Source: Deltaproteobacteria bacterium | GTDB lineage: Bacteria; Omnitrophota; Gorgyraeia; Velamenicoccales; Velamenicoccaceae | Assembly (NCBI GenBank): GCA_050258015.1 | Contig: JBLMXZ010000093.1 | Coordinates: 1 to 47,285 of the forward strand | DNA: 47,285 nt | Reading direction: 5' to 3' | In this document: in pieces, positions 12,001-25,189 of the stretch | How positions within the stretch are numbered: the stretch's first letter is position 1 | Layout: every line of letters starts with the position of its first letter | Notes under the pieces: generated by a model | The model's input: only the letters and a program-made list of their open reading frames with translations | Told to the model about the DNA's origin: nothing | The model's database searches: none | Translations under genes and position numbers: made by a program

Positions 12001-15000
12001 GCCGCCGATGCTCGTCACGCGCACCTTGAGCGTGTCGGCATTGGTGATGTCGTCGATGCCGGGCGTCCACGGATAAGGGCTGTTGGCCGAAGGATAGCTG
12101 GAGGTAATGGTGCGTGTATCGGAGGCGAAGTTGTCGGCGGAGTACTCGATCTTGATGTTGCCTATGGAGCCGGTCTTGGTCCATGTGATGTCGAAAGGCG
12201 TACCGACGGTCAGCGTGTTGGCGCCGTCCGGTGCCGTCAGGTCGATGGAACCTTTAAGCGTGCTGGCCGCGGTCGTCTCGACCTTGACGTCGGGGTTGCC
12301 GGCGTCCACCACGCGGAAATGGACCTGGGAGGAGATGTTGTCCGTCGGGGCCCAGGTCTTGCTCAAGCCCACAACGTCGTCGCCGATCTGCGTCCAGTTC
12401 GTCTTATTATTAAAGGAAACGAAGATGTCGAAAGCCGCGATGTTGCCGAACTTCGTCCACGTGATGTCGTACGGCGTGCCCACCACGAGGGTGTCGCCCG
12501 CGTCGGGATCCGGCGTCGACAGGAAGATGCTGCCCACGATGGCGTTGTCCGTATTCGAGACGTTCTCGTCGGTCGGGTCGGTGGCGCCTATCGGCAGGAC
12601 CTTGACCTTGACCGTGGCCGAAGGCGCATCCGGAATGGTCCAGCTGAAGCCTGTCGTCGGGCCGATGGAGGAATCCAGGTCTTCGGCGCCGGTGATGGCG
12701 GTCCAGACCGCGTGGGGCGCATCCGTGGAATAATACAGGGCCACATGACCCACCTGCCCCGTGCGGCTCCACTTTATCGTATAGGGCGTATTGATCGAGA
12801 GGTTGACCCCGCCGTCCGGCTGGGTAACATCCACCTTGCCCTTGATCGTAAACCAGCCGACGGACTGGTCCGAGACGGCCGAATCGCCGACCTTGGAGAT
12901 GCGCACGATGCATTTGTTGGAGAGCGTGCTGTTGGGGATCTGCCAGTTATAGGTAAGGGCAGCCTTGTCTATTTCGACGATCTCGTAAGGCGCCCCCACC
13001 GGCCAGGTCGATCCGCCGTCATCGGAATACTGGAGCTTGACCAGTTGTCCCGCCGCGAACCCCTTCGTCGTCCACGTGATGGCGTGGAGGTCCCCCACGA
13101 CCCATCCCTCCCCGCCCACGGGAGACCCGAGGGTCACGGTCGGTTTGATCTTGAAATCGGCGACGGAACTGTCCTGGACGGTGATGTCCAGCGCGTCGCG
13201 CACGCGGATACGCACGTGGTCGGAGACGACGGCCGAGCTGTTGGGGATGGTCCACGTGTAACTGCCGGCGGGTCCCGACGTCGACCCTACGACGGCGCCC
13301 GTATAACCGTTGTTACCGCTGTTGGTATCGTAGTCGATGGCGACGTTGGCGATCGAACCCGTCAAAGACCACGTGATATTCAGGTCCGTCTCCACTTCCG
13401 CGGAAAGCTCGGGATTGTTATCCGGGTAGCTCAGGATGACGCCGCCCTTGACCGCGAAGCCCGGGTCCTCCGTGACCGAATTGACATAGGTGCGGTCGGA
13501 GACCTGTTCGATCTTGAGCTTGCCCTGGGTCGTCGGCTGGTTGGGGACCGCGAGGGCATACGGCTGGCTCGTCCCGGCGTCTATCGTGGCCAGGGCCGCC
13601 CCGTACGCGCTGCCGCCGTCGGCGCTGAAGAAGATCTCGATATTACCCAGCGTGCCGGCGTAATTCCACGTCACGTCGATAGGGTCGCCGCCGATATAGT
13701 AGATGCCGCTCGTGGTGGGTGCCGTCATGCTTATCTTGCCTTTGATCGCGAAGCTCTCGGACTCCTTTTGGACCTCGGTCTCGTTGCCGACCTGCGTCAC
13801 CTTGATCTTGTTGTCCGTGCCGATGGTGTTGCGGCCGCCCCACGTCGCGGGAATCGTCCAGGTGTAGCTCTGCGGGCCGCTGGCGCCGGCCTCGCCGCTG
13901 GTGACGGGCAGGTACTCGGCCCCGCCGTTGTCGGAGTAATAGATGTTGACCGTGCCCAGATCGCCGCAGTTCTTCCACTCGATCAGGTGCGTGCTCGGCA
14001 GCGCGGCGCTGTTGACGCGCAGGGCGTCCGTGCCCGTGTTCGTAGAATCCGGCGAGGTGACGACGATCTTTCCTTTGATCGTGAAGTCCTGCGCGGAGGT
14101 GGCAGAGACATAGCTCGGCGCGTTGGCGCTCATGACCTTGACGCGCACGTGGCTGCCGATGGCGTTGGGGACCGCCCAGCTGTATCCGTCGAGGTTGGCG
14201 ATGGCCGCCCCGCCGGCGATAAGCTTATCATAACCGTCGTTGCCGCTGTTGGTGTCGTACGCGAGCTTGACCTGGCTGATGTTGCCGTAGGTATCCCAGG
14301 ATATCTGGTAGCTGTCCGTCGCGTCGTCCGGATCGTCGACCTCGAGGGTCTCCAGGCCGTTGGGTTGCGACAGGACCAGTTTGCCCTGGATAATGAGGGA
14401 ATTATCCGAGACGTCCGAGATGGTGGCGTCGTCGCTGAACTCGACCTTGAACTTGATATTCGCGTTGCGGTCGTTGGGGATGACGTTATCCGGTATGGGC
14501 TGCCACAGGTACGAGCGCGCGCCCGAGCCCGCCGGGTAATCCGTGACGATGGTGTTGTTGTACGGCTCCCCGCCCGTCGTCGAGTAATAGATATCGACCG
14601 AGGAGATGTCGCCCACCGCGGTCCACGTGATCTGGTGGTTGGTGCCGACCTCCCAGGTGGGCGTCCCATCGCCGTTCGACTCGCCCGTGATGGTGATGGA
14701 CCCCTTGATGCTGAAATCATAGGCGCTGGCGGCATAGACCGAGCTTTCCTTGCCGACCTGGTAGACCTTGACGCGCACGTTCGGCCCCACGATGCCGGCC
14801 ACGTCCTCTATCGTCCACTTGTAGCCGATATCCGCCCCGCCGGAAGGAATATTGTCCGAGGCGACGCCGTCGGCGATGAATCCCTGGTAATCGTCGCTGT
14901 CGCCGGGCGTGCCGTTGGCGCCCTTGCCGGAGTTGGTGTCGTAGCGCAGGTTCACCAGTCCGAAGCCCGCCGGGTTCGGCGTCCACTTGATATAGACCTC

Positions 15001-17727
15001 GTCGCCCACCTGATGGCTTATCCCCGTCGCGTTGGGATAGACCAGGACAAGGCTCCCCTCAACGGCGAAGAGTCCCGTTATGCCGCCCGTCCCGCCGTTC
15101 TCGTCCTCATCCCCATCGAGACCGACCCTTACCTTATTGGTCACCCCCATATGCGCCTGGACCGGCGTCCAGTTGAAATACCCCTGGCTCATCGGCACCG
15201 TTCCCAGAAGGATATCGTAGGAGGTCCCGCTGTTCTTGGACAAGCGCACGTTCGCGTCTCCGGAGAAGGTCCCGGTCGGCGTCCACTGGATGGTCTTCTG
15301 CGTCCCCACATGGAGCGTCTCGCCCGCGTGCGGCTCGGTCACCGAGACCAACCCCTTTATCTTAAAATTGTTGTCGCCCTCGTCATATATATAGGTATGG
15401 TCATGGTCCTGCACCCGGATCTTGACCGTATCGCTGATGGCGTCCGGGACCGGCCAGGAGTAGGGGCTCGCGTTCGGGATACCCGCGGGAGGCGTAACGG
15501 TCACCGCTCCCGTTCCCTTGTCGTAGAGGATGTCTACGGTCGTCACGGTCCCCTGCGTCGTCCATTCGATGTCATGGGTCGTGCCCACGCGCCAGACGAT
15601 GCCCGAACCGCTGGGCGTCGTCACGGTCAAGGTCTGCTGGATGGTAAAGTCCGAGCCCGAGGCGTCGCCGACGCTCGGAAAGTCTATGGAGACGACCTTG
15701 ATGCGGGCCTGGGAGGTGCCGGGCGCGGTCGGGGTCCACGGAAAGGGAGACGAGTCCGCCGCGATGCCGGCGGCGATGGTCTCGGTATAGGTGCCGCCCG
15801 AGTTGCGCGACAGCTTGATATCCACGCCGTTCGTCATGAAGGTCGAGCCCTTGACCGTCCAGATGACATCGTTGGATTCGCCTATCTTCCACGTCTGACC
15901 GCCTGTCGGCGCGGATAAGGTGATCTCGCCCGACACCGAGAAGTTGGAGTCCGAGGTATCGTAGACGCGGGACTCCTCGCCCACCTGCTCGACCCTCACG
16001 CGCACCTGATCGCCCAGGGGCAGCGGCCCCGTCGTCCAGTTGATGGCATAAGGGCTGGAGCCCGCGGCGAGGCCCGTGGCGATGGTCGTCGAATAGCTGG
16101 TGCCGGAATTCGTGCTGTACTTGAGGGCAACGGTACGGCCCGTCGTCGGGCCATAGAAGGTCCACTGAATATTCGTCGGGTCTGTATAGGCGATCGTCTC
16201 CCCGCCCACCGGGTAGGTCAAATCCAGCTTGCCGATGACCTCGAAGTTCGCGTCGGAGGTGTCCGAATAATAGGAGTCGTCGCCGCTCGCGTAAGAAGAA
16301 TCCCTCACCTTGATGCGTGTCGTAGCGCCGATGACCGCGCCGTCCGCCGCGGACGGCGTCCACGAATAGCTGGTGCTGCCGGAGCCGCTGTTGGTCACAC
16401 CCGAAGCCAGCGTGATGGGATACGTCCCTCCTCCGTCATTGGAAAGGAGGATGTTGACCGTCGCGACGCGCGCCGGCGCGTACCACGTGATGTCGTGCGC
16501 CTCGCCGCACTTCCACAGCTCCCCGCCGTTGGGCGAAAGGACTTTCATGGGCTCAAGCTGCACGCCGAAATAATCCATGACGGATATCTGGCTATTGTCG
16601 CCCCTCTCGGCGCGTATCGTGGTGTCATTGAGGAATTTGACGGCGGAGCGCGCAACGTCATTGGCCGTCCCGCCGCCGAAACAGTCCAGGGAGCTTACGG
16701 AGAACCGCCATTTGGAATTGAAGCTCCGGGAAAAGCCGAAATCCGCGTAACCGTAGGTGTTGGCGACCTTGGGCAGGAGACCGGAACCGTTCTGGGAAAA
16801 ACCGAGGCTGCCCAGCTCGATACAATAATAATAGATATCGCTCACCCCGCCGATGTTCCTCTTGTTGAAAACGACCGTCAGATCGGACCCGAGCGATCCG
16901 CGCCACCATTGGTCCAAGCTTCCGTCCGACGTTGTAAAGCTGAAGACCAAAAAGGCCTTGCTGCGGTCCACGGCCGTGGACAGGGTGCTGGTGACCATGA
17001 CGTCGCCGGAGGTGGCCTGGACGAGGCCGCACTGGACGGTCGAGTCGTCGCGCAGGTGCACGACCTGATACCACGCGTCGACGGCGTTGGTGGTGCCGGC
17101 GCGCCAGATCTTGATCTGGTCCTGCGTCGGCGCCGTGTTGTAGATGACCTGGGAGGCCAGCTGGATATCGATGATCTGGCCGGCGTTGTTGGAGGCGCAG
17201 TTCGTCGGATACGCCAAACTGAATGTCTTGCCTGAGGGGAAATCGTGGGTGAGGTTGACGGTCGCCGAGGTGGCCCCCACGGAAAAGCTCGCGGTGCCGC
17301 TCTCCACCTCGAAGGCGTCCGACACGACGACGTAATACTTGATGCCCTGGTCCGCCTCGGTGGAAGAGGCGTTGCGCAGGAACTCGATCTGGTTGTTGCT
17401 CGTGCCGCTCTGGGTGGAAGGATTAAAACGCGCGGCCCACGCCTGGTACTTGGGCGTGGTCTGCTGCGTGTAGAAGGTAAAGAAAATGACGGACCGGGTC
17501 GTATCGACGCTCTCCGACAAAGTCTCGAGCTTCTGGCTGAGGCTCTGCGTGCTGAACTCGCCCGAGAAGACGCGCGTGCGCGCCTCGGCAGACCCCGTCC
17601 CCAGGCCGACGATAAAGGCGGCCGCCAGGCACAGCGTTGTGAGGGTCCCCAGGAAGGCCTTGAGTCCGCGTCGTGCCGCTGTGCAACGCAGGGCCGCGCG
17701 CCGGCCGGTCCATGTCAAAGCCTCCAT
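1..17727 (-). CDS. Giant exported repeat protein (fibrillar adhesin-like); only the first 5,909 codons are present, the C-terminus lies beyond the left edge
   Basis: The minus frame whose codons end on coordinates divisible by 3 is open from ATG 17727 (GGTGAGGA just upstream) to base 1. The supplied track has no ORF in this frame, consistent with no in-window stop. Hand translation gives MEALTWTGRRAALRCTAARRGLKAFLGTLTTLCLAAAFIVGLGTGSAEA... (signal-peptide-like) at the start and ...HIGQYRTNTQEIVKIKEDLARI at bases 90-1. G/C third-position bias fits this frame. All long + strand ORFs here are Arg/Gly/Asp-rich mirror frames. Confidence 0.9.
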   Translation of the reverse strand, partial: MEALTWTGRRAALRCTAARRGLKAFLGTLTTLCLAAAFIVGLGTGSAEARTRVFSGEFSTQSLSQKLETLSESVDTTRSVIFFTFYTQQTTPKYQAWAARFNPSTQSGTSNNQIEFLRNASSTEADQGIKYYVVVSDAFEVESGTASFSVGATSATVNLTHDFPSGKTFSLAYPTNCASNNAGQIIDIQLASQVIYNTAPTQDQIKIWRAGTTNAVDAWYQVVHLRDDSTVQCGLVQATSGDVMVTSTLSTAVDRSKAFLVFSFTTSDGSLDQWWRGSLGSDLTVVFNKRNIGGVSDIYYYCIELGSLGFSQNGSGLLPKVANTYGYADFGFSRSFNSKWRFSVSSLDCFGGGTANDVARSAVKFLNDTTIRAERGDNSQISVMDYFGVQLEPMKVLSPNGGELWKCGEAHDITWYAPARVATVNILLSNDGGGTYPITLASGVTNSGSGSTSYSWTPSAADGAVIGATTRIKVRDSSYASGDDSYYSDTSDANFEVIGKLDLTYPVGGETIAYTDPTNIQWTFYGPTTGRTVALKYSTNSGTSYSTTIATGLAAGSSPYAINWTTGPLPLGDQVRVRVEQVGEESRVYDTSDSNFSVSGEITLSAPTGGQTWKIGESNDVIWTVKGSTFMTNGVDIKLSRNSGGTYTETIAAGIAADSSPFPWTPTAPGTSQARIKVVSIDFPSVGDASGSDFTIQQTLTVTTPSGSGIVWRVGTTHDIEWTTQGTVTTVDILYDKGTGAVTVTPPAGIPNASPYSWPVPDAISDTVKIRVQDHDHTYIYDEGDNNFKIKGLVSVTEPHAGETLHVGTQKTIQWTPTGTFSGDANVRLSKNSGTSYDILLGTVPMSQGYFNWTPVQAHMGVTNKVRVGLDGDEDENGGTGGITGLFAVEGSLVLVYPNATGISHQVGDEVYIKWTPNPAGFGLVNLRYDTNSGKGANGTPGDSDDYQGFIADGVASDNIPSGGADIGYKWTIEDVAGIVGPNVRVKVYQVGKESSVYAASAYDFSIKGSITITGESNGDGTPTWEVGTNHQITWTAVGDISSVDIYYSTTGGEPYNNTIVTDYPAGSGARSYLWQPIPDNVIPNDRNANIKFKVEFSDDATISDVSDNSLIIQGKLVLSQPNGLETLEVDDPDDATDSYQISWDTYGNISQVKLAYDTNSGNDGYDKLIAGGAAIANLDGYSWAVPNAIGSHVRVKVMSANAPSYVSATSAQDFTIKGKIVVTSPDSTNTGTDALRVNSAALPSTHLIEWKNCGDLGTVNIYYSDNGGAEYLPVTSGEAGASGPQSYTWTIPATWGGRNTIGTDNKIKVTQVGNETEVQKESESFAIKGKISMTAPTTSGIYYIGGDPIDVTWNYAGTLGNIEIFFSADGGSAYGAALATIDAGTSQPYALAVPNQPTTQGKLKIEQVSDRTYVNSVTEDPGFAVKGGVILSYPDNNPELSAEVETDLNITWSLTGSIANVAIDYDTNSGNNGYTGAVVGSTSGPAGSYTWTIPNSSAVVSDHVRIRVRDALDITVQDSSVADFKIKPTVTLGSPVGGEGWVVGDLHAITWTTKGFAAGQLVKLQYSDDGGSTWPVGAPYEIVEIDKAALTYNWQIPNSTLSNKCIVRISKVGDSAVSDQSVGWFTIKGKVDVTQPDGGVNLSINTPYTIKWSRTGQVGHVALYYSTDAPHAVWTAITGAEDLDSSIGPTTGFSWTIPDAPSATVKVKVLPIGATDPTDENVSNTDNAIVGSIFLSTPDPDAGDTLVVGTPYDITWTKFGNIAAFDIFVSFNNKTNWTQIGDDVVGLSKTWAPTDNISSQVHFRVVDAGNPDVKVETTAASTLKGSIDLTAPDGANTLTVGTPFDITWTKTGSIGNIKIEYSADNFASDTRTITSSYPSANSPYPWTPGIDDITNADTLKVRVTSIGGIPVSDVSQGAFKVIGGISNVQPSGATTVWVKGQSKEVTWTETGNIGAVDIKYKTASGDSFNKTIVTNDTGHADGANSYPLTVPDENSEDCWVRVYDHANNSVYGTSAEAFAIRPLITVSAPALGANIRVGSNNTNAVQWSRNGSAKVTSVNIAYSTNGVAGPFDKTIASNVDASLGQANWNGVANDVSNTVVVRVADTINTNVYGLSEIFNIVGGITVQAPNGNEDWPVGASRNISWTKTGTVGNVNIYVDYGSGYEISPINPSPIDAETVSVFAWNPIPDEVSNSCKIKIAAVNNPTVVVDESDAVFHIIGGFAFLTPDGSPLTSGDAYDITWTPTGTDVTEVKVEFYNGTSWSTLASNATNSGIYPWTVPSTTAATTCKVRLTASNPVQPATAKESSNFWIHGALSVTAPTSSAKWAVGSQQNILFNVTGKIDTVNIKYSKDGGTDNYAYTVASGYAVSAGANTYQWNIPTDQDILSATGAKLKIVDGAYTTVYGVSQNFMVKGAITVLTPSADNIVMTYGTGNPYAITWSTSGPVSDVRIYYSTNDGTTYPNEITTAAGVPATPASYNWDIPNLIVGKHMKIKVVDKANSEAYGVSDNTFEIIGQISLDAPAGTEKWTVGTNENILWTPTGTYTNVQVQASKDDFATYLLNVTRPAGATGVQQSYQWTNLPDSLTSNLKVRVYDPDHQPTVVRDTSDALSILGGLDVTAPESGQIWYKGETKQITWDASGTVTNVKIEYKTSLAGSYATIEANHGGHTAGANSYDWSVADLNSETCYVRVSDVNNYDDVFSVSVAPFSIRPKITVTAPGLGAVIRVGSNNTNGVQWNIGGSTKVTLVNLLYSTNGVSGPFDKTIANNVDATLGQANWNGVADNVSNNVVVKIVDTVNPNVYGLSEVFSIAGSITVSQPNGGNNWPVGTSQNITWAKTGTVGNVNIYVDYGSGYVVTPLATVDAESVSLWAWNPVPDHVSNTCRIKIADADNESIVFDESDAVFKIAGNFTVTAPVDQEILIVGSNYDITWSRQGSAITDVKIEYSTNNGTSWTTITDAASNTGSYPWTVQDAISNSCKIRVSDPNNSEAYDDSEGNFKIKGSLTVTSPNDGTESWNVASTYPITWTKTGSIASVNIYYSANNGTSWTKLNTLAVDASLGTWDWAISGSTPLTTQGLIRVENAADSSVKDESDNNFIVKGSVTLVTPSATGISLRVGDAYAITWTKAGAVQNVELHFSTNGGIVGGGAYAGGDLIATVPATDGSYSWSVPDRIGTNVRVRVRDAANSAVWDESDNVFEIKGKVLVNAPNGTEEWYVGDPHQITWTPTGTFAQVRLQYSTNAFATEDYTVNIVTLAAGASGVPQNYDWTVPDAITNTMKVRVKDTTNDTVADVSDATFIVRGRLTLLVPNGTEEWVVGGSQNITWSRAGSVTPVKLEYSTNGGSTYPFTIVASTNGLTGTYPWSVPDAISDQVRVKITDVNDSLVTDESDANFFIKGYVVLQTPNGGEAWGVGTTQNITWARYGSAVSNVKLEYSDNGGTSYDTVIIASTDAATGSYPWQIPDHINATMKIKITSTTDSTITDTSNNNFKIVGVLTVQAPNGGEQWGVQTQHNISWTMSGSISNVKIDYSTNSGQAYPNPVVASTPAGSLAYLWTIPDAVSNAVRVRVADASDSTVFDTSNADFSIEARFDVTSPDGGEVWVVGSSHDITWTKIGSTPNVKIEYSTDSGLNFPNTIIDSTPNTGSYPWVVPDVISSSLRVRVSDANNTDAYNDSEANFKIRGNITVAAPNGNEAWIVGSKYNILWTKTGSIANVKLEYSTDGGGTYPSLILASIGAGVGTYEWTIPDDRSQTCRVKVTDTTDSSVFDTSNADFKIRGNLVVTAPNGSEQWAVESLHDITWTRTGSIPTVKLEYSIDGGSTYPNTIIASTDASAETYPWTIPDTISNLARVRVVDTTDSTVNDISNANFKIMGVLELTSPNAGTEAWEVGSSHPITWNRTGSIANVKLEYSIDGGSTFPYTIAASVAAAGGTYTWNPVPDNMTTQGRVRVSATTDASVNDVSAADFKIIGKLTVTAPDGGEVWPVGTTQSINWTRVGTLLTAVKIDYSLDGGVTYPNAIVATTAAATGNYPWSVPDAISSSVRVKVTNVDDTNVFDASDANFKIRGDLILSAPNGSEVWLINSNHSITWVKNGSIGNARLDYSTDGGATYPYNITTSVNAALQTLNWVIPDRPSIQVRVKIADAGDATVFDFSDANFTIRGGFTITAPNGGEKWPVGSSQSITWNTFGSIANVKIEYSKNNGTNWSVISNSETNLGTYGWTVPDAISTQCLVRIYDIGDPNAVDVSDAVFKIHGTLNVTAPNGGEQWGVGTAQDIIWTKSGSIANVKLEYSTDGGATFPNLIVNATPAAALTYPWTVPDSISANVKIRITDSTDTDASDVSDGAFKIKGAFLLTAPNGGEAWIVGTTHDIAWTTFGTVGYVKLEYSTNAGTDWNQIVASVANNGTYPWTVPDTISTTCRVRVSDANDSSAWDISNNNFKIRGNLTLTAPNGGEKWNVGSSQVIAWDRVGSIANVRLEYSDNGGATYVPIINQTPNAGTYAWTVPDAITTQARVRVTNYDDSTVTDASNANFKIQGTFVISSPNGGEAWIVGSSHDILWSTSGTINFADLAYSTDGGATYPNGIVTSLGNIGTYSWTVPDNVSGSVRVRVADSSDDEAFDVSNGNFRIRATVILTAPLGGETYKVGSTYNITWTTIGSIPNVKIEYSRFNFLTDINTIAAAAANSGSYPWTVPDRISNTVKVRVSDPNDAGANAVSGSDFRIITGLTVTAPNGGQMWDVGSSHDITWTCTSAQANVPDVKIEYSVDGGATYPYILAATPNDGVWTWDPVPDTISANVKVRVSDLADSTAYDASDSALKIRAKFTLEAPNGGEVWTVAESHDITWSTVGTVANVKLDYSLNDFGAAVPIIASTANDGAHTWTIPDSISTNVKVRVMSIGDTDAYDISDAAFKIRGDLRITAPNGGELWLINQNSAITWVTTGTIANVKLLYSMNSGATYPNTIVASTGNTNSYSWLIPDTATPSARVRIENTSDDTVYDTSDANFRIRGFFTLTSPNGGEEWVVSTAHNVTWVKGGTIGYKLLYSTDSGATYPNTIVTQADPAQNTGSYSWTIPDAISLTARVRIEDPNDAMTNDESDADFTIRGDFAVTAPNGGERWIALETRPITWATNAGTISDVKLEYSKDNFVSDVQTIIASTPNDGSYDWLVPDDRSASVRVRVSDVNDPRVYDVSNAAFTIDYYTITFELRDLLTNEALTNLSAVEKITGTENIVWQASGLTSPVVHEVPYGFYTTSFVATGYGEKALNYDFQDGKTDQAFTLYLETTTVHIWRAYSDFAYEPSTSTSSDALNVTSWLERDGFVVSGATDVTVEIYDGGTLIQTVSDNSPNAAGFFDMRWTPTTLQSGKAYGTITKITNASGAVFKTPGSFQVTEAQRLQDTQKAVEQMRDVTLPAFQTGISTLITDKMDTQENLITDKLDTQAVLITSKMETQTQLITTKMDQQQQIITDKTNLMVSTVNATLSSFETKSQEAIGKLQTGATKAVEAGENLEATAKRYSWKATVSPNPSLPGDLLTFSCQGPTRLTPVLSVYNYDNKAILIEKPMTEKETGLYVYDQLKADTGVFTPGKAYTYVITEPITGGLVSGSGTVESTSITAIAGLAAAAPEAERASKKVLEAVTTLQDVLVSDNAVNIGLALTNLQQSVEELPELLGKQMDKGSQAKLLNQVADRLKTLVGDSEGIDLQSMLEDALGENPTIKEIQSKTEAISGVIKFLSQLFEAKLGGMDTPVVSTSLAPGSVKFRIAVANPSSTRVQTVPVKVYLPAEVKPGDIMDLAGLTLEYDSQKSIYYVYSDGVELAPLESRLFEVEVEDIWFVDKNELASLRKQTEVALERLKNTDYFEAARLIGAQITERLDAIVKSETNDESMSRERHIGQYRTNTQEIVKIKEDLARI
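1325..1490 (-). repeat. Five in-frame 33-nt (11-aa, hendecad) repeats in the post-array coiled-coil region of the giant CDS
   Basis: ggtgatcag-type cores at 1336, 1369, 1402, 1435 and 1468, exactly 33 nt apart. Translation: LITDKMDTQEN LITDKLDTQAV LITSKMETQTQ LITTKMDQQQQ IITDKTNLMVS. Confidence 0.8.
2150..16550 (-). repeat. In-frame array of about 49 tandem ~93-100-aa beta-sandwich (Ig-like; Kre9/KNH-type 'Ser-Thr-rich GPI-anchor family'-like) domains inside the giant CDS
   Basis: Period ~282-300 nt. The + strand motif gccgccgttggg (PNGG on the minus strand), or degenerate versions, recurs near 2392, 2680, 2963, 3243, 3533, 3815, 4097 ... 15908, 16210, 16527 (counted by eye). Verified unit (4693-4983): FKIHGTLNVTAPNGGEQWGVGTAQDIIWTKSGSIANVKLEYSTDGGATFPNLIVNATPAAALTYPWTVPDSISANVKIRITDSTDTDASDVSDGAFKIKG. 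The family name is from memory of the motif pattern, not a search. Confidence 0.85.
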
Positions 17728-17788
17728 GGTCCTCACCTGCCTTTCGGGGCTAACTCCGTTGGGATATTTAAGGCTGTTATCCATCTTC

Positions 17789-18310
17789 CTATTCTTCCTC
17801 GGGCTCCACTTCCTGGGCAAAGGTCACGACCGGCAGCACCCAGTACGCGACCACAACGTCCTTCATCGCCACATCCGGCGCCAGCTCGAACTCGATCAGA
17901 TAGGCATCCGGCTGCTCGATGACCTCTTTGCCCTCCTCGCGCATCTTCTTGCGCATGCCCTTTCTCATGACCTTGGTCAGGTCGAGCGCCGCCGCGCCGG
18001 CCTTCTTGTCGGCGCTGCGCAGGACGGCCTGGCTGCCGGAACCCGGCAGGGCCGTCGCCGGATCGTAGAGCTGATAGAGCTTCTCGATCGCGACCGCGTT
18101 GTACTGCTCGTCCAGGTCCCGCATGTCCGTGGAGCGCACGCGCGCCGCGGCGACCGGGATGCGGGCCGCCTCCCCTTCCGGAAGGGCGATCGTGCCCGGC
18201 GTCACCTGGATGACCATCGCCTTCTTGACGGGTTGCGGCTCTTCGGCGCCCGCCCGCGCCGCCGCGAGGAAAACAGCGGCCAAAGCAAAACAGAAGATTT
18301 TCGTTTTCAT
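17789..18310 (-). CDS. Small secreted hypothetical protein (173 aa) with signal peptide and acidic C-terminus
   Basis: ORF track. N-terminus MKTKIFCFALAAVFLAAARAGAEE is signal-peptide-like. The ATG overlaps the upstream stop as ATGA (18307-18310). The stop lies 61 nt before the giant gene start. No family recognised. Confidence 0.75.
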   Translation of the reverse strand: MKTKIFCFALAAVFLAAARAGAEEPQPVKKAMVIQVTPGTIALPEGEAARIPVAAARVRSTDMRDLDEQYNAVAIEKLYQLYDPATALPGSGSQAVLRSADKKAGAAALDLTKVMRKGMRKKMREEGKEVIEQPDAYLIEFELAPDVAMKDVVVAYWVLPVVTFAQEVEPEEE

Positions 18311-19464
18311 GGTTCGGCCCTCCTGTAATCCATGCTCACAAAAGAGAAATCCTGCGACGCGCCGTCTTGGGCGCGCAGGCTCAAGACACCCTGCATCCGG
18401 CCGTCCTCGACTTCGGCATGCCAGGACCCGGTCGAACCCTTCTCGCTCGTCTGCATCGTCTCCCAGGTCAGGCGGCCGTTCTCTTTTATTAAGGTATAGT
18501 GCGAGGCCGGATACCCGTTGAGCTCCAGGTTCTCCGAGGACATCTTTCCGTCCTTGAACGTGATCTCATCCACGGTCTGAAAGGGCGTGCCCGCCACGAA
18601 TTTGATCTGCCACACGCTGCCGTCCAGCCCCACGATGTCAAAGGGAATGACGACCCGGCCCGCTTCCGGCGCGGATTCTTCAACGACCGCCGAGGCCGAA
18701 TCGGTCCTTCTCTGGTTCTTCTGGTGAGCGTAAAAAAGGACGGAGCCGGCCACGGCCGCCACCACCATGCTCGAGATGAGCGGCAGGACAAGGCGCTTTT
18801 TGCGGGGGGCCGCTTCTTCCGCCTCCGGCTTCTCCAGCATCTCATAGATCCTCTTGGCAAAGTCCTCCGAACCCAGGCAGATCTTGCGGTGGAGCTCCTT
18901 ATGGAACGTGCGCCCCTCCTCCGCAGGCTGCTGTCTCATGTAATCCGAATAGGTTGCGGCCGATAAATGTCCAAGGACCTCCTTGACCTCCTCTTTCATG
19001 TCCACGACCCGCACCCCCTGCGGCGCAAATTCCGTGTAATGGCCGAGGCTGGAATAGGGGTAGTCCGCTTCGCGGCCCACGTGCGAAGGGTTCAGGTGGA
19101 TATAACGGGTCAAGCGCAGCAGATAGGGGTCCTTTTCGATGATCGTGGCGCGATAGCGCCCCCGGAAGAGATGACCCTGGCGGTTGTACTTTTTGTTGTA
19201 ATACTTGGTGTAGGCCGAGGTCAGATTGTGCATGACCTCGGAAAGCGTGCCGCCGCCCGCAGGGGTCTCAAGGAGGAGGTGCAGATGGGTCGGCAGAAGG
19301 ACAAAGGCAAAGAGGCGCGCGCCCTGCTGGGTCTTGTACTTGGCCAGGAGTTCCAGGTAGGCCGCATAGTCTTCGGCATCGCCGAAAAGATTCTGCCCCT
19401 GGATCGCCCGGGTCGTAATATAGTACAAAGCGCCTTCTATGTTTATTCTGGGAGCCCTTGGCAT
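18307..19464 (-). CDS. Membrane-anchored protein: N-terminal RAYT/IS200-like Y1 HUH domain (COG1943-type), one TM helix, ~110-aa extracytoplasmic beta-rich domain
   Basis: HUH motif in LLPTHLHLLLE. GHLFRGRYRATIIEKDPYLLRLTRYIHLNP matches the G-x-lf/w-q-gRY ... rYIhxNP signature, including the catalytic Tyr position. TM segment LVLPLISSMVVAAVAGSVLFYA. SD AAGGA lies 6 nt before ATG 19464. Confidence 0.8.
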   Translation of the reverse strand: MPRAPRINIEGALYYITTRAIQGQNLFGDAEDYAAYLELLAKYKTQQGARLFAFVLLPTHLHLLLETPAGGGTLSEVMHNLTSAYTKYYNKKYNRQGHLFRGRYRATIIEKDPYLLRLTRYIHLNPSHVGREADYPYSSLGHYTEFAPQGVRVVDMKEEVKEVLGHLSAATYSDYMRQQPAEEGRTFHKELHRKICLGSEDFAKRIYEMLEKPEAEEAAPRKKRLVLPLISSMVVAAVAGSVLFYAHQKNQRRTDSASAVVEESAPEAGRVVIPFDIVGLDGSVWQIKFVAGTPFQTVDEITFKDGKMSSENLELNGYPASHYTLIKENGRLTWETMQTSEKGSTGSWHAEVEDGRMQGVLSLRAQDGASQDFSFVSMDYRRAEP

Positions 19465-19528
19465 CTTCTGTCCTTTTTTGCCTTGACTCTTTCCGGTTCC
19501 CTGTTTTCTATTCTTTTTTTATCATTCA

Positions 19529-19570
19529 TGCCTGGCACTTCTTTCATTTTTCTCGTTTTGTGCCTGGCAC
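19529..19570. promoter_or_regulatory. Two copies of the palindrome TGCCTGGCAC (core TGCC-N-GGCA), 32 bp apart, in the 5' UTR between the leader terminator and the first cistron
   Basis: Exact 10-nt copies at 19529-19538 and 19561-19570. Because the core is self-complementary, the two copies can also pair with each other in RNA (10 bp with one central A.A mismatch, 22-nt loop). Confidence 0.3.
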
Positions 19571-19584
19571 CTTGCGCATGCCAC

Positions 19585-19619: not shown

Positions 19620-19765
19620 AAACTAAGTTGCAGTTTCGGCAGCCCAACTATCCGCCAACTTTCTTTGGCGGACTTGTGGCTTTGCGTCCCCAGGTTTCCC
19701 TGCCTCCCTTTCGGGAGTTCTGCATAAAGCAGAGGTTTGCCTTTTCGTACTGCTCCGATCTGTCA
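19620..19765 (-). promoter_or_regulatory. Candidate c-di-GMP-I (GEMM-I)-like riboswitch aptamer
   Basis: Minus-strand RNA contains GGCAAACC (19734-19741) and GGGGACGCAAAGCCAC (around 19678-19691), which I recall as the two hallmark blocks of the class. It also has GAAA-capped hairpins (CUCCC-GAAA-GGGAG, CAGG-GAAA-CCUG). A long P2-like hairpin UCCGCCAA-agaaag-UUGGCGGA is flanked by CCACAAG/AUAGUUGG, which resembles a tetraloop receptor. The terminator follows. The segment between the two blocks is longer than in the textbook example, so the assignment is tentative. Confidence 0.4.
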
Positions 19766-19770
19766 CTATA

Positions 19771-19799
19771 AATATAACATTTTCAGGGGTGTTTTTCAA
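19771..19799 (-). promoter_or_regulatory. Sigma70-like promoter for the leader and operon
   Basis: Minus strand TTGAAA (19794-19799), 17-nt spacer, TATATT (19771-19776). Confidence 0.5.
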
Positions 19800-19931: not shown

Positions 19932-20105
19932 TTATTTCTTTAAAAGGCTCAACGCGATCGACAGCAGGAAGCACACGCCGGCGAACTGCAGGAACGCCTC
20001 CGCTTCGAGGCCGACCGGAGGCACCGGCGCGACCAGAAGACGCGACACGATCCCGATCACGATGCTGACGACGCCCAGGGCTACGACGACCTTGTTAACG
20101 CTCAT
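19932..20105 (-). CDS. Small (57 aa) two-TM membrane protein, hypothetical
   Basis: Within ORF 19932..20147. An internal ATG at 20105 is preceded by GGAGG with a 5-nt spacer. Sequence: MSVNKVVVALGVVSIVIGIVSRLLVAPVPPVGLEAEAFLQFAGVCFLLSIALSLLKK. Confidence 0.55.
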   Translation of the reverse strand: MSVNKVVVALGVVSIVIGIVSRLLVAPVPPVGLEAEAFLQFAGVCFLLSIALSLLKK

Positions 20106-20162
20106 ACCGCCTCCTCTTCGTCCTTTGCAGTCACCGCTTGTCTTCAAGGCAAGGGTTAAGAT

Positions 20163-21212
20163 CTATATCCCGACTCTCTCGTGCACTTCTTCCATCTTGT
20201 GCAACCGCCGCCCCATCACCATCAAAAGCCCCACCAGGACAAACATGATGCCGCTCTGCAGGATCATCAACAATCCGAAGATCCAGTCCGAGGCATCGGA
20301 GATGATGAGCGCGCTGATACCCATGGAAGCGCTGATGGCAAAGATAAAAAAGATGGCGCCCCGCGGCCCCAGCCCCAGGTCCATCAGGTAATGATGGAAG
20401 TGATCGCGGCCCGCGTATTCGAACCACTGAACCACGGTGCGCACCTTATGCTCTTTGATGCGCATGAACGTGGTGAAGGTCATGTCGAAAATGGGCACCC
20501 CCAGGATGAGGATGGGCACGATCACGCGCAGGATGTTCTCGCCCGCCCAGCTGCCGGTCAAGGCGAATCCCGCCAGGGTAAAGCCCAGGAACATGCTCCC
20601 GCCGTCCCCCAGGAACATCTTGCCCCTGCTGAAGTTGTGAGGAAAGAAACCCGCGCAGGCCCCCATGACCGCGGCCGGAAGGAAGATAAGATCGACCTGA
20701 CCGGTCGTCAACAGGATGATGAAAAAGAAGAAGGCCGCCACGATCGCCAGGCCCGCGCACAGGCCGTCGGCGCCGTCCAGGTAATTGAAGGCATTGGTGA
20801 TGCCCAAGATCCACAGGAGCGTGATGAGGATCTCGAGGATCTTGCCCCACCAGACGTTTGGGAGAAAACTGATGCGCAGGCCGTTGGCGATAAGGAGGAA
20901 GGCGGCCGCCAGCTGCACGACGAGACGCACCCGGGCGGATATCTCGCGCTTATCGTCCATAACGCTGATGACGAAGATGAGGGTCGAGGCGAGGAAGAGC
21001 GCCTGGTGGGACCGGGCGTAGAGAGGCACGACGAAGGAGCCTGCGATCACGCCCAGATAGACCGCCGCCCCTCCCAGCAGAGGCACCGGCTCCCGCTGAA
21101 GCTTTCGGGCGCAGGGAACGTCGACGACGCCCCACCGCAGGGCCAGAGCCCGGAACAGGGGCGCCGACAGAAGGGCTACCAGGAACGCCACCAGAAAAGA
21201 GGTCAGCGTCAT
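20163..21212 (-). CDS. Polyprenyl-phosphate sugar-1-phosphate transferase, MraY/WecA family (glycosyltransferase family 4), initiating enzyme
   Basis: The multi-TM protein starts MTLTSFLVAFLVALLSAPLF. NAFNYLDGADGL and FLGDGGSMFLG motifs are typical of the family. The start overlaps the PIG-L stop as ATGA (21209-21212). The longer 530-aa ORF in the track is an out-of-frame overlap with PIG-L. Confidence 0.85.
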   Translation of the reverse strand: MTLTSFLVAFLVALLSAPLFRALALRWGVVDVPCARKLQREPVPLLGGAAVYLGVIAGSFVVPLYARSHQALFLASTLIFVISVMDDKREISARVRLVVQLAAAFLLIANGLRISFLPNVWWGKILEILITLLWILGITNAFNYLDGADGLCAGLAIVAAFFFFIILLTTGQVDLIFLPAAVMGACAGFFPHNFSRGKMFLGDGGSMFLGFTLAGFALTGSWAGENILRVIVPILILGVPIFDMTFTTFMRIKEHKVRTVVQWFEYAGRDHFHHYLMDLGLGPRGAIFFIFAISASMGISALIISDASDWIFGLLMILQSGIMFVLVGLLMVMGRRLHKMEEVHERVGI

Positions 21213-21823
21213 AGGGTCTTCAGGATCCTCAGCGCCTTGAACCCTTCGGCGTATTTCACCCGGCCCTGATATCCCCGGAAGACGGCGCAGGACTTGGCGC
21301 TCTCGAGGATGCTCAGGTTCTTGACGCGGGTGCGGTGCACCTGGGAACAGTGGACCCTCAACAAGGTGAGCTTCTTCGTCATAACGCGGCTGATATCGAC
21401 GAAGACGTCCGGCTCGAAGGCCTGTGTCGTCGGGACCTCGTAATACAGGACCTCCCGTATGTAGCGCGAGGCCGAGAGCGCCGCGCGGGCGAGCGCCCGG
21501 TGGTCCTGATGGATATCGGCGAGGTAGTTGAAAAGAACGAGATCGGGCCTGGTCTTTTTGATGGTCTCTTCGATCAGCGTGATCACGCTGCGGTCGCGCG
21601 GCACCTCGGTATCGATAAAGTCGCCCCAAAAGACCCGGCGGGCCTTCATGTAGTGGGCGGCGCGCTCCTGTTCGCAACGGCGCTTCTCGGGGGACCCCCC
21701 CACCCCGCCCGAGGTCAGGACCAGAAGAAAGACCTGGTGTCCTTTCTGGGCGCAACGCATGAGCGTGCCCCCGCAGCCGAACTCGATGTCGTCGGGATGG
21801 GCGCCGATGGCGAGAATATTCAT
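21209..21823 (-). CDS. PIG-L/LmbE-family N-acetylglucosaminyl deacetylase
   Basis: MNILAIGAHPDDIEFGCGGT... and HQDH motifs. GAGGGAG lies 8 nt upstream of the ATG. Confidence 0.85.
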   Translation of the reverse strand: MNILAIGAHPDDIEFGCGGTLMRCAQKGHQVFLLVLTSGGVGGSPEKRRCEQERAAHYMKARRVFWGDFIDTEVPRDRSVITLIEETIKKTRPDLVLFNYLADIHQDHRALARAALSASRYIREVLYYEVPTTQAFEPDVFVDISRVMTKKLTLLRVHCSQVHRTRVKNLSILESAKSCAVFRGYQGRVKYAEGFKALRILKTL

Positions 21824-21842
21824 ATAAAGAACTCCCTCGCTG

Positions 21843-21924
21843 CAGCTGTTTAGCTGATTCGCTGATTAGCTCATTAGTAAAACCGTTGCGCTAAACAACG
21901 AAACAGCAAATCAGCTAATCAGCT
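21843..21924. repeat. Intercistronic hairpin element built from tandem octamers (type AGCTGATT)
   Basis: Left arm AGCTGTTT AGCTGATT CGCTGATT AGCTCATT (21844-21875). Right arm AAACAGCA AATCAGCT AATCAGCT (21901-21924), which is the inverted array. Confidence 0.7.
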
Positions 21925-21929
21925 TTTTG

Positions 21930-22748
21930 TTATACGCCTAAGCTCGCGACAACGTCTTCCGCGATGGCGCGGTCGATGCGCGTGGCGTTGTTGTTGAACC
22001 CCGACAAAAGGCACATGTCGCAGATCTGGTTGATGCGCCGCGGGATGCCGCCCGAATTCTCGAAGATGGAATCGACGGCGTCCTGCGAGAAGACGTCGGT
22101 GCCGCGCGCGCCCGCGATCTTAAGGCGGTGCCGGATATAGTTGCCGGTGTCGTGGATATCGAAGGGCGCCAGATGATACCCGAGCGCGACCCGCTGGACG
22201 AAGGGCTTATGTTTGCGCGCCTTCTCCATGAGCTCGGACTGCCCCATCAGGATAAGGGTCAGAAGGAATTTCTCCTCCGTCTGGAAATTCAACAGCAGCC
22301 GCAGCTCCTCGAAGATCTCGTCGTCACGGATCATGTGCGCCTCGTCGATGATGACGAGGGTCTCCTTGCCGTCCTGGCTGTTGTTGACGAGGACCTCTTC
22401 GATGCGCTGCAGGAACGTGTCCGCCGACATCTCGTTGAGCTTCTCGGAGAGCTCCGTCACCCCCAGCTGCCGCGCGATGGCGCGCAGGAGCTCCACGGAC
22501 TTCAGATACGGATTGCTGATGAAGGCGATGCGGTAGACGTTCTTGTTGAGTTTATCGAGAAGGGTGCGGCCCAGGACCGTCTTGCCGCAGCCGAAGACGC
22601 CCGTCAGCATCGCCGCGCCCTTGCGCTGCTCGACGACATATAGAAGGCGGAAGAGCGCCTCCTCATGCTCTTTGGAATAATACAGGAACCGCGGGTTGGG
22701 CGTGTTCTCGAACGGTTTCTCTTTCAGGCCCCAATGCGCTTCATACAT
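21930..22748 (-). CDS. ExeA/GspA-like AAA ATPase (AAA_22-type)
   Basis: Walker A GVFGCGKT and Walker B LVIIDEAH. N-terminus MYEAHWGLKEKPFENTPNPRFLY is typical of the ExeA family. Confidence 0.8.
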   Translation of the reverse strand: MYEAHWGLKEKPFENTPNPRFLYYSKEHEEALFRLLYVVEQRKGAAMLTGVFGCGKTVLGRTLLDKLNKNVYRIAFISNPYLKSVELLRAIARQLGVTELSEKLNEMSADTFLQRIEEVLVNNSQDGKETLVIIDEAHMIRDDEIFEELRLLLNFQTEEKFLLTLILMGQSELMEKARKHKPFVQRVALGYHLAPFDIHDTGNYIRHRLKIAGARGTDVFSQDAVDSIFENSGGIPRRINQICDMCLLSGFNNNATRIDRAIAEDVVASLGV

Positions 22749-22811
22749 AGCTCACCCCCCACTTCCACCCCGGCGGAATCTTACCGGTGCTCCGCGCGAG
22801 GAGACCGGCGT

Positions 22812-23498
22812 TCATTTTTTGAACAGCGCGGCGCCGCCGGGTCCCTCGTTGAACAAAAGATCGACGGCGCTCAGGCACGGGACAAAATCCTCGTCGCGCT
22901 CGGCGAAGAGCTGCGCGTAACGCGGATGCGCGAACTCCTGGTACACGACGCGCTGGCCGGCCGCGCGGAAAAGGCCCTCTTCCAGATACGCGCGTCCCCC
23001 GGCGCCGGACAGATACGTGGCGGCCCCCAGGGCCCGGCCGATATCGACGAGCCGCTGCGTCTTGGCGCCGGAGGTCCCCAGCTCGGACTCCAGCACGGTG
23101 CGCGTCGCGATACCGAACCTTTCGCAGAAGAAACGGATCGTGGCGACGTTTAGGTCCATGAGCCGCTCCCACCCGAGCGCGTACAGCGATTCAAAAAAAC
23201 CGATCTCGGCGTCAAAAAAAGGCGCGCGGCCGTACCAGGCCTTAAGGCTCTTCAAATGCTGCGCGCGCCAATCGCGGCCGTTGTCGATGCGCACATCGCG
23301 CAGGGCGATGCCTTGCTTATAATGAACGGGCACCGTTAACCACTGCACGCCGTCCTTGGTGCGGATCTTATTGCGGTTCTGGAATTCCCGGTGCTTGTAC
23401 TGCACGGTGTCCAGGAACACAAAGACGTCCGCCCGCGCCATCTTGTCAAAAAATCCGAGCCAGGGAATATATTGAGGCTGATGCGCCGCGTAAACCAT
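22812..23498 (-). CDS. WbqC-family protein
   Basis: N-terminus MVYAAHQPQYIPWLGFFDKMARADVFVFLD matches the WbqC-like signature (QP-Y-PWLGYF). Confidence 0.75.
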   Translation of the reverse strand: MVYAAHQPQYIPWLGFFDKMARADVFVFLDTVQYKHREFQNRNKIRTKDGVQWLTVPVHYKQGIALRDVRIDNGRDWRAQHLKSLKAWYGRAPFFDAEIGFFESLYALGWERLMDLNVATIRFFCERFGIATRTVLESELGTSGAKTQRLVDIGRALGAATYLSGAGGRAYLEEGLFRAAGQRVVYQEFAHPRYAQLFAERDEDFVPCLSAVDLLFNEGPGGAALFKK

Positions 23499-23596: not shown

Positions 23597-25189
23597 CTAA
23601 CCCTTGGTGTCCTTGCCGGTCTTCTCGGCCGTCACCTTCGGGATCGCAAAGATGGGGTTGGTCACGATGGTCTGCGGCCCCCGTGTGATCACCACGCGGT
23701 AAAAAGACGCCTTTTTAAGCGGCTGCGGGTCCACGTAGAAAAAGCCCAGCGGAAGGGCGTGGTCTTCCTCTTTGACGACCTCTCCATTGCGAATGACCGA
23801 AACTTTGATGTCCTTCGGCCCCGTGTCCGGGCGGCGCGGCACCTCCGGCTCCTGGGCGGCCTGCTCCTCCTGCGATCCTTTGCGGTCGGCCGTTACGGCT
23901 ACGATCGGAGAACCTGAAATAACGGCGATAGAACCCGGCCCGACGCGTTGTCCCGTGCTCGAATCCATGACGGAAAACTCATGCAATAATAAAGGGTCGT
24001 CCGCGCCGCCGGCGGTCGCGTACATCCGTCCCCCGCGCATCGCGTCCAGGATATCGTGCCAGTTCAAGGCCTCCCCGAGAACATACGTTCGTGTCCCCTC
24101 CATGCGACGCAGCAGCTCCTGACGGCTGCCTGTGTCGAAGGACATGCCGGAAACCGCCCAGACAGGGGCCGCGCGCTCCCCGCGGCAATATTCCATCAGA
24201 GCCCTATCCCACTGCCCGCCAGGCGCTCCGACGATCTTAAGGCCCTCCGGGAAGACACAAAATCCCGTGTAATCCTTAGTCTCCATTATCGCCCCGGGAT
24301 GAGCGAGAGTCTCATAACGAACGCCATCGTGCTCCCCCGAATTGGCCGCTTCGGGATGGGCCCAGAATGTCAGACCCCCTTCGCCCCGGACGTAATCGAT
24401 AAAGTCCTGGTAGGGCCGGTAACCGGCAGTCCGGGAATATTGATCGTATCCTTGTGGCAAAAAAGGATTTTCGTTTATGATAAAAAGAAGACCAAGACAG
24501 GCCGCGCCGATGCCCGTCAAGCGCCACCTCAGGGAGAACCGGCTGCAGACAACGCCTTTCTCGTCCGCGTAATCATACTCGCGCCGGTAAAACAGGAACG
24601 CGCCCGCCCCGAGCAAAACAAAAGGGAACAGCCGGAAGATATCCACCCAGCGCCACGAGCGCGCGATCGTTGACGGCCGCGCCACATTGGGCAAATGCCT
24701 CAGATCCTCCGCGTCCGTAAGGCCGGCAACGAGGATATGGCGATGCCAATTATTGAGCCTCAGGGAACCTGAAAAAAGAGAACCCGTCCAGTAATAAAAA
24801 GGCGCTGCCTCAACCCCGGGGATGATGATAAGGTCAGGGTATTTTCTGGAATAAAAGCTTATGTCATGCAAATAGTTAGAATATCCGTATGATGAAACGG
24901 ACTTCTCGGATTCCGATCTCTTGAGCAGGTGTTGCAAAGGCCACAGCCCATATTCCCAGCGCATGGTATCCCTGTCCATGATAATGAGGGCTTCCAGGCC
25001 CGCCTCGTGCGCCGTGTCAAAGACCTCCTCCATCGTAAAAGAACCGTCGCTTACCGTAGTGCTGACCTGAAGGCCTACGGGCATCCACCGCCAGACAAAC
25101 CCCTGCGCGTCCGCCGCATATAAGCGGGGGGCGAACCATAATAGGGCCGCGAAAAGCAGCGCCCCTCCTATCGCGTTCTTAGGCCTCAT
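23597..25189 (-). CDS. Membrane-anchored protein with a PHP-like domain (N-terminal metal-binding His motif not conserved); function unknown
   Basis: ORF track. ATG 25189 gives MRPKNAIGGALLFAALLWFAPRLYA, a signal/anchor. VSDGSFTMEEVFDTAHEAGLEALIIMDRD resembles the PHP block h-H-x-H-T-x-x-SDG ... iaiTDH with the His residues replaced. A second TM segment lies mid-protein. The functional call has low confidence. Confidence 0.6.
   Translation of the reverse strand: MRPKNAIGGALLFAALLWFAPRLYAADAQGFVWRWMPVGLQVSTTVSDGSFTMEEVFDTAHEAGLEALIIMDRDTMRWEYGLWPLQHLLKRSESEKSVSSYGYSNYLHDISFYSRKYPDLIIIPGVEAAPFYYWTGSLFSGSLRLNNWHRHILVAGLTDAEDLRHLPNVARPSTIARSWRWVDIFRLFPFVLLGAGAFLFYRREYDYADEKGVVCSRFSLRWRLTGIGAACLGLLFIINENPFLPQGYDQYSRTAGYRPYQDFIDYVRGEGGLTFWAHPEAANSGEHDGVRYETLAHPGAIMETKDYTGFCVFPEGLKIVGAPGGQWDRALMEYCRGERAAPVWAVSGMSFDTGSRQELLRRMEGTRTYVLGEALNWHDILDAMRGGRMYATAGGADDPLLLHEFSVMDSSTGQRVGPGSIAVISGSPIVAVTADRKGSQEEQAAQEPEVPRRPDTGPKDIKVSVIRNGEVVKEEDHALPLGFFYVDPQPLKKASFYRVVITRGPQTIVTNPIFAIPKVTAEKTGKDTKG

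Follow-up and report, generated by a model that had tools for sequence, protein, structure and literature searches.

How does a bacterium control a giant gene, and what handles the protein that it encodes? For the giant genes of Omnitrophota, which are a puzzle at present, neither question has an answer. We analysed a stretch of 47,285 nucleotides (nt) from a Deltaproteobacteria bacterium with an Omnitrophota lineage in GTDB (assembly GCA_050258015.1, contig JBLMXZ010000093.1), hereafter the window, whose minus strand carries such a gene behind two small ones. A previous reading of the letters alone, the original prediction, took the three genes as one compact unit and the two small proteins as dedicated partners of the giant one. 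We find that a promoter, a cyclic di-GMP class I (c-di-GMP-I) aptamer, a terminator, twin sequence boxes and the genes of an HUH membrane-barrel protein, a small secreted protein and a giant secreted protein constitute a conserved single unit. We lean towards reading it, with somewhat more belief than doubt, as a c-di-GMP-gated operon of a giant surface protein, equipped with a periplasmic partner specific to the head of the giant and with a transposase-derived, ToxR-like regulator. Its elements in the window are the following.

19771-19799 (-), sigma-70-type promoter-like site, TTGAAA-17-TATATT with TG, about 20 nt 5' of the aptamer

19635-19751 (-), c-di-GMP-I (GEMM-I) aptamer, Rfam RF01051, with a 41-nt insertion in one stem-loop

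19583-19617 (-), intrinsic terminator, 12-bp stem AAGUCUCAGG..CCUGAGACUU followed by a U-run, the expression platform of the riboswitch

19560-19573 (-), box 1, AAGGTGCCAGGCAC, core 19570-19560, beginning 14 nt past the T-run of the terminator

19528-19541 (-), box 2, GAAGTGCCAGGCAT, core 19538-19528, 32 nt 3' of box 1 and 74 nt before the ATG

18307-19464 (-), gene of the 385-amino-acid (aa) HUH membrane protein, first cistron

17789-18310 (-), gene of the 173-aa secreted small protein, class B, its start overlapping the stop of the 385-aa gene

1-17784 (-), gene of the giant secreted protein, incomplete, at least 5,909-5,928 aa, with an alternative start at 17727

The coordinates of the open reading frames (ORFs) bear out the overlap of the first two genes as ATGA (18307-18310). 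The three genes do share a strand behind one structured leader, and that leader is a c-di-GMP-I riboswitch. Between the cistrons no terminator had been seen, and we found none that is convincing: the sole strong one (stem and T-run, 19617-19590) lies in the leader, 5' of the first cistron. The remaining minus-strand candidates are 5-bp stems, and the total of 7 sites, against 3.6 ± 2.1 expected, is near chance.

One detail of the original prediction changes. The gap of 61 nt before the giant gene holds if translation begins at ATG 17727, but an ATG at 17784 (17782-17784) is in frame with the giant ORF, only 4 nt past the stop of the small gene. This start is favoured because the residues that it adds (..SPERQVRT-MEALTW) are conserved in two homologous loci, L095 and L096, whose small and giant genes stand 5 nt apart or overlap. 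The true start is probably ATG 17784, which would make the unit tighter than first noted. Starting there, a region of about 45 residues precedes the hydrophobic core of the giant's signal peptide.

Homologous loci were drawn from species-representative genomes (L001-L005), from exact look-ups (L081-L092) and from a metagenome scan with the barrel domain of the 385-aa protein as seed (L093-L172). The census set comprised 47 full-length homologues of the 385-aa protein, non-redundant at <90% identity. Each part of the unit was detected with its own hidden Markov model, and for the riboswitch census a covariance model was built from 11 Rfam-validated aptamers; 75 generic Y1-transposase (Y1_Tnp) loci, 940 kb in total, served as the negative control; they are the remainder of a scan of 80 loci, 5 of them full-length. 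The full-length homologues are 360-450 aa long and come nearly all from metagenome-assembled genomes of uncultured Ca. Omnitrophota; identity among the 47 falls to ~30%.

The linkage of the trio, which the original prediction had put forward as its test, recurs strongly in these loci. Directly 3' of the HUH gene there is a small ORF with a signal peptide in 36 of the 40 testable loci, and an ORF homologous to the head of the giant protein follows within 2.5 kb in 28/29, running off the contig every time. Giants of 6,237-8,192 aa are called on longer contigs. On the 5' side, 41 of 43 testable non-redundant loci have a riboswitch directly ahead of the HUH gene, always on the coding strand; of the other two, L129 lacks a riboswitch and L001 has a displaced one. 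An adjacent riboswitch occurs in none of the 75 control loci. A promoter equivalent to that of the window (at least 10 of 12 matches, 13-26 nt 5' of the aptamer) is present in 72% of homologous loci versus 1.6% of control windows.

The aptamer of the window scores 48.5 bits against RF01051 (gathering score 35, E 1.5e-6), within the range of 36-64.5 bits in homologous loci. Its ligand-contact positions look canonical, on the assumption that we place the equivalents of G20 and A47 in Vc2 numbering correctly. Two relatives deviate. The aptamer of L092 (9770-9848) fits the c-di-GMP-I-GGC variant RF03167 better, with 63.6 bits, and that of L005 (9779-9875) has an A at the position taken as equivalent to Vc2 G20, which is the signature of GEMM-Ib riboswitches sensing cyclic GMP-AMP. 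Ligand specificity may thus differ among lineages, to judge from these two aptamers.

Every leader read has an intrinsic terminator 15-30 nt 3' of the aptamer. In all HUH-bearing leaders the order is aptamer, terminator, boxes, and across these loci the arms of the terminator are conserved in sequence, TC(T/C)CAGG(T/C)A ... TGCCTG(A/G)GA. This layout suggests that c-di-GMP gates transcription by attenuation.

The product of the first cistron had been called a RAYT-like membrane protein, and both parts of that description hold. It matches Pfam Y1_Tnp (PF01797) with 36.8 bits (cutoff 23) and, over residues 5-138, the NCBIfam equivalog REP_Tyr_transpos (NF047646) with 72.3 bits, below the cutoff of 80. 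Its AlphaFold2 (AF2) model, made from 92 homologues with a predicted local distance difference test score (pLDDT) of 86, divides the protein into a RAYT-like HUH α/β domain and its helical extension (aa 1-215), a single long hydrophobic membrane helix (aa 231-258) and an eight-stranded β-barrel, predicted to be periplasmic (aa 283-382). The closest PDB entry, by sequence (E 2e-5) as by fold (Foldseek E 7.7e-8, TM-score 0.74), is Escherichia coli TnpA_REP with its REP hairpin, 4ER8. Together with 2F4F and 2XQC it heads the Foldseek structures for the HUH domain, with E from 8e-8 to 1e-4.

Y121 of the window protein aligns with tyrosine 115 of TnpA_REP, which we take to be the catalytic residue of that enzyme. 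Of ~126 family members, 17 have H, F, C or Q in its place and ~12 have substituted HUH histidines; altogether the catalytic Tyr or His is lost in ~20% of members. In the same family H123, R103 and K87 are invariant, and E110 is changed once. Members without the catalytic residues nevertheless keep both operon and boxes (L081, L004, L092, L115, L155 and L130), so DNA cleavage is unlikely as the conserved function of the family; L081, with Y changed to F, is a 76%-identical relative. The simplest reading of this pattern is that the HUH domain has retained nucleic-acid binding, not transposition.

The barrel weakly resembles lipocalin-like barrels and belongs to no Pfam family. Its own family counts 706 cluster representatives; the majority are secreted proteins of 150-270 aa in which the domain stands alone. 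Such stand-alone paralogues occur in L001 (8883-9578), L115 (5786-6436 and 6501-7118), L142 (9911-10405) and L150 (9911-10414), a few kb upstream of the unit in loci of the secretin/peptidyl-prolyl isomerase (PPIase) type, HUH-less ones included. The polysaccharide locus of L090 contains a further Y1_Tnp gene (961-1614), which is short, at 217 aa, and is not fused to a membrane helix and barrel. The defence-system models of PADLOC match none of the three proteins of the unit.

Between the terminator and the ATG of the 385-aa gene lie two copies of a 14-nt box, AAAGTGCCAGGCAC. The window contains two matches where 0.07 are expected by chance. The motif is confined to leaders: the rest of the window and ~2.4 Mb of loci contain no other copy, and the control loci have none. 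It is asymmetric, with a conserved 5' AAAG and a 3' flank that is not conserved, and the copies are direct repeats. From the T-run to the core of box 1 the distance is constant across loci, at 12-16 nt. The spacing between the boxes is instead 20-22, 30-33, 42, 52-53 or 64 nt, with a periodicity of 10.5-11 nt (p ~0.005, Rayleigh and permutation tests on distinct values).

Another pair of boxes is seen, for example, in L086 (9944-9987). In the sister loci L115 (8986-9061) and L155 (7639-7702) the spacer consists of AAGGTT-type hexamer repeats, and the spacings of 64 nt and 52 nt differ by 12 nt. Two other roles for the boxes were rejected by inspection: a sigma-54 promoter misfits the -24/-12 spacing, and upstream sites of a second promoter would find no room, with box 2 often only 20-25 nt from the ATG.

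The boxes co-occur with the HUH gene. Three related loci, L142, L150 and L163, are HUH-less variants made of riboswitch, class A small protein and giant only; in them the boxes are absent and the terminator sequences unrelated. L001 is rearranged: its HUH gene lies apart from the giant gene, and the boxes have stayed with the displaced riboswitch and the leader of the giant, not with the HUH gene. The HUH-less L142 has a 317-aa membrane protein of no known family (14032-14985) as first cistron, between the riboswitch and the class A gene.

The 173-aa protein begins with what looks on inspection like a signal peptide (MKTK / IFCFALAAVFLAAA / RAGA-EE). Its slot in the operon holds two unrelated families. 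Class A has 27 clusters; class B, the rarer one, has 9, that of the window included. Distant homology of the two was ruled out by BLAST and by profile-profile comparison (hhalign probability 9%). Against Pfam, class A gives only sub-threshold hints to OB-type folds (DUF5666, CusF). The AF2 model of class B has a ferredoxin-like α/β core and a disordered basic insert at 86-115; its confidence is moderate, since one of five models alone reached pLDDT 67. Without a PDB match better than E 0.09 for this model, the class B fold is tentatively called ferredoxin-like.

Each class goes with its own type of giant. Giants whose mature N-terminus reads A[VY]Q[IV]K[RK]V accompany class A, and those with ART[KR]V accompany class B; this pairing is incongruent with the phylogeny of the HUH protein. 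In the window, the HUH protein is closest to the class A locus L083 (56% identity), while the giant head is closest to the class B locus L128, with 293 bits versus 35 bits for L083. It follows from the incongruence that small protein and giant head form a module that is inherited together, while HUH gene and leader make up a second one. Being co-inherited with the type of giant head and not with the HUH gene, the small protein appears as the partner of the giant. The original prediction, which from linkage had proposed both small genes as dedicated partners, would then stand for the 173-aa protein; the linkage itself holds for both, but the HUH protein resembles a regulatory module in its own right.

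No stop interrupts the giant ORF between 17727 and window position 1, which gives it at least 5,909 aa. Behind a long, signal-peptide-like N-terminus comes a head of ~400 aa that is homologous across loci, followed by diverged immunoglobulin (Ig)-like Kre9_KNH and reelin-subrepeat-like domains. There are no near-identical DNA tandem repeats in the giant gene. A search for full-length relatives of the head returned nothing, and no locus has a complete giant ORF. The protein is most likely a secreted surface fibre or adhesin.

We now propose how the unit could work. A single transcription unit would yield a giant Ig-like-repeat protein, probably a cell-surface fibre or adhesin, whose expression c-di-GMP gates. 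Transcription would start at the sigma-70-type promoter and run into the c-di-GMP-I aptamer, with the intrinsic terminator as expression platform; read-through transcripts would encode the HUH membrane protein, the small periplasmic protein and the giant. The HUH protein would be oriented with its RAYT-type domain in the cytoplasm, exapted as a nucleic-acid-binding module, and with its small barrel in the periplasm. In a ToxR-like manner it may bind the two phased AAAGTGCCAGGCAC candidate boxes at their fixed distance behind the terminator, and the barrel could read a signal of the envelope or of export and couple it to expression of the operon. The small periplasmic protein would be a specific partner, chaperone or adaptor, of the N-terminal head of the giant. 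In a bolder version, the domesticated HUH domain would read the phased boxes on the cytoplasmic side of a transmembrane transducer of a new class, whose barrel would sense export or assembly of the giant itself, so that an RNA switch and a protein switch act in series on one leader. This we regard as conceivable, with more doubt than belief.

The comparison with ToxR-ToxS and CadC concerns architecture alone, as the AF2 model gives it here: a nucleic-acid-binding domain at the cytoplasmic N-terminus, then one membrane helix, then a domain in the periplasm. As with ToxR-ToxS, the gene of a small periplasmic partner comes next, with overlapping stop and start, and direct-repeat sites, here candidate ones, are found close to the genes under control. 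The barrel of ToxS is lipocalin-like. There is, however, no homology of sequence or fold: ToxR and CadC have a winged helix of the OmpR type. Because its cytoplasmic domain is HUH/Y1, the 385-aa protein is an analogue of ToxR and CadC, not a member of their family. The candidate sites also differ, as they lie in the transcribed leader past the terminator instead of upstream of the promoter, and so does the small partner, which tracks the giant protein instead of the putative regulator.

Several points weigh against the proposed operon model. Known Y1/HUH domains, those of IS200/IS605 and RAYT, bind single-stranded hairpin DNA, not phased duplex sites. The window protein retains H60, H62 and Y121, and catalysis is thus possible for it. 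In many loci box 2 is so near the ATG, 20-25 nt before it and ending 10-14 nt short of it, that the boxes must be transcribed, inside the 5' untranslated region (UTR); they may have an RNA-level role or serve another trans factor. The link between boxes and HUH gene comes from only one independent HUH-less lineage, the three related loci, and one rearranged locus. The direction of the switch, ON or OFF, did not emerge from folding truncated leaders, in which the 5' arm of the terminator found no consistent partner. Two unrelated folds in the slot of the small protein may mean that the function of the slot is not uniform. Finally, the giant gene is incomplete, with any C-terminal sorting or anchoring signals outside the window.

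Of the alternatives, the one that survives best treats the boxes and the terminator arms purely as RNA elements, which would extend the expression platform, control translation near the ribosome-binding site or be bound by another factor that recognises RNA. The HUH protein would then be non-regulatory, its barrel aiding export, anchoring or assembly and its HUH domain a scaffold or in an unrelated role. The place of the boxes in the 5' UTR fits this well. In addition, CCAGGCA/UGCCUGG is common to the terminator arms and the boxes, and GGCA/UGCC recurs in the arms and in the conserved core of the aptamer, so a chain of alternative pairings is conceivable, and the stand-alone barrels of neighbouring secretin-type loci suggest a role in the envelope machinery. 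A stem of box 1 with box 2, though, was looked for and rejected: it lacks covariation, with 18 variant cells paired versus 15 unpaired, and a score as high as that observed arises in 312 of 2000 shuffles. The asymmetric motif is conserved in sequence, not in structure alone; a helical-type spacing period is unexpected for an unstructured RNA spacer; and the invariant basic and aromatic residues of the HUH fold argue for retained binding of nucleic acid. We hold this explanation to be unlikely, though it deserves to be taken seriously.

The HUH protein could also be catalytically active, nicking or joining single-stranded DNA at the hairpin-box module, for instance as a covalent tether of the locus to the membrane, a DNA-level switch or the start of local DNA processing tied to expression of the giant gene. 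Such activity would suit the three retained residues of the window protein, which ~80% of family members keep in full, and the closest structure, which is a REP-hairpin nuclease. The leaders here also recall the layout at the left end of IS200, where a terminator-like hairpin is followed by elements close to the ribosome-binding site and these by the gene. Yet Tyr or His has been lost independently in many members, the 76%-identical relative among them, while operon and boxes stay; orientation and position of the boxes are always the same; and the window and ~2.4 Mb of loci reveal no dispersed copies, second end or rearranged alleles. We consider an active enzyme quite improbable. An ordinary mobile IS200/RAYT transposase placed by chance beside a giant gene, as the database labels of the homologues ('transposase' or 'RayT') would have it, is refuted by the neighbourhood census and the 75 control loci, because the arrangement recurs with fixed synteny in 47 non-redundant loci down to ~30% identity, with a protein fused to membrane helix and barrel that scores under the RAYT equivalog cutoff, and because generic Y1 loci have neither riboswitch nor boxes.

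The model of a regulated operon, which we continue to prefer, combines parts of known kinds: GEMM-I riboswitches, the HUH/Y1 fold and the giant proteins of Omnitrophota. For the arrangement itself our literature search found no earlier description, in line with the original prediction, which did not recognise it as a described system. With RAYT (TnpA_REP, 4ER8) and the Y1 transposases of IS200/IS605 it has in common the HUH/Y1 fold, including the HUH motif and the tyrosine in the window protein, and, with RAYT, a single-copy, domesticated-looking gene alongside a short palindromic motif. Unlike in those systems, the HUH domain is here fused to a membrane helix and a predicted periplasmic barrel and has a fixed operon position behind a riboswitch. 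REP and REPIN elements are dispersed, whereas the motif here forms phased direct repeats in leaders only; catalytic residues are dispensable in a fifth of the members. Mobile insertion sequences vary in genomic location and have ends or a second hairpin; here synteny is fixed, and no right-end element was seen.

Riboswitches for c-di-GMP are known on adhesin and pilus genes, as in Vc1 with gbpA of Vibrio cholerae and in surface-protein and pilin genes of Clostridioides difficile. The common scheme is a GEMM-I aptamer and terminator platform ahead of a surface or adhesion gene. Here the operon adds a transposase-derived membrane protein and conserved twin boxes, its cargo is of ~6,000-8,000 aa or more, and its lineage is Omnitrophota. 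The literature search gave no report of such riboswitches in Omnitrophota, and nothing relevant on membrane-bound RAYTs.

Giant secreted proteins of Omnitrophota have been described with a focus on those of at least 30,000 aa (West-Roberts et al. 2023, 10.1101/2023.11.21.568195; 2026 preprint, 10.64898/2026.06.07.730766). Both papers place genes like those of the type II secretion system (T2SS) upstream and PilZ genes downstream; the latter hint at a link to c-di-GMP. The loci analysed here belong to the same phylum and some of them likewise lie 3' of secretin/T2SS-like genes and a PPIase, as published. Their giants are smaller, though, the context upstream in the window is a Wzx/Wzy polysaccharide locus, and the two papers make no mention of riboswitch, HUH membrane protein, small partner or boxes.

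For the giants, the unit offers a concrete, testable control unit made of a c-di-GMP-sensing RNA, a conserved cis-element and two dedicated accessory proteins. If the model is true, membrane-tethered nucleic-acid binding would be a new fate for domesticated HUH transposases. Three uncharacterised protein families are defined: the periplasmic β-barrel domain and the small secreted classes A and B. The module of promoter, riboswitch, terminator and boxes is short enough for work in vitro or with heterologous reporters, without culturing.

Upstream of the unit in the window, on the same strand, lies a large Wzx/Wzy-type polysaccharide locus with a Wzc-like kinase, Wzy, Wzx and many glycosyltransferases and methyltransferases, as well as a radical-SAM/SPASM enzyme, WbqC, an ExeA/PEP-CTERM-type ATPase, PIG-L and a WecA-like family 4 glycosyltransferase (GT4). 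The ATPase (21930-22748) reaches 220 bits against the PEP-CTERM ATPase equivalog of the XrtA system, under its cutoff of 324.5, and no exosortase is found among the window ORFs scanned.

It is the block of WbqC, ExeA-like ATPase, PIG-L deacetylase and WecA-like GT4 (20163-23498 (-)) that precedes the riboswitch. The same block is found in L003, L081, L083, L086, L088 and L090, with the ATPase absent from L086 and L088. After it, a small membrane ORF of 57-71 aa occurs in the window (19932-20147 (-)), L081, L083 and L090. Other loci carry a secretin/T2SS-like block upstream instead; as either kind of block may precede it, the operon stands at the end of two alternative envelope-biogenesis loci.

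The polysaccharide locus also encodes a conserved protein of 474-539 aa without a Pfam family (window 23597-25216 (-)), whose sole match, a weak one, is the CehA/McbA metallohydrolase of NCBIfam. Its relatives are encoded in L081 (4253-5827), L083 (4217-5701), L086 (4304-5743) and L088 (5866-7290).

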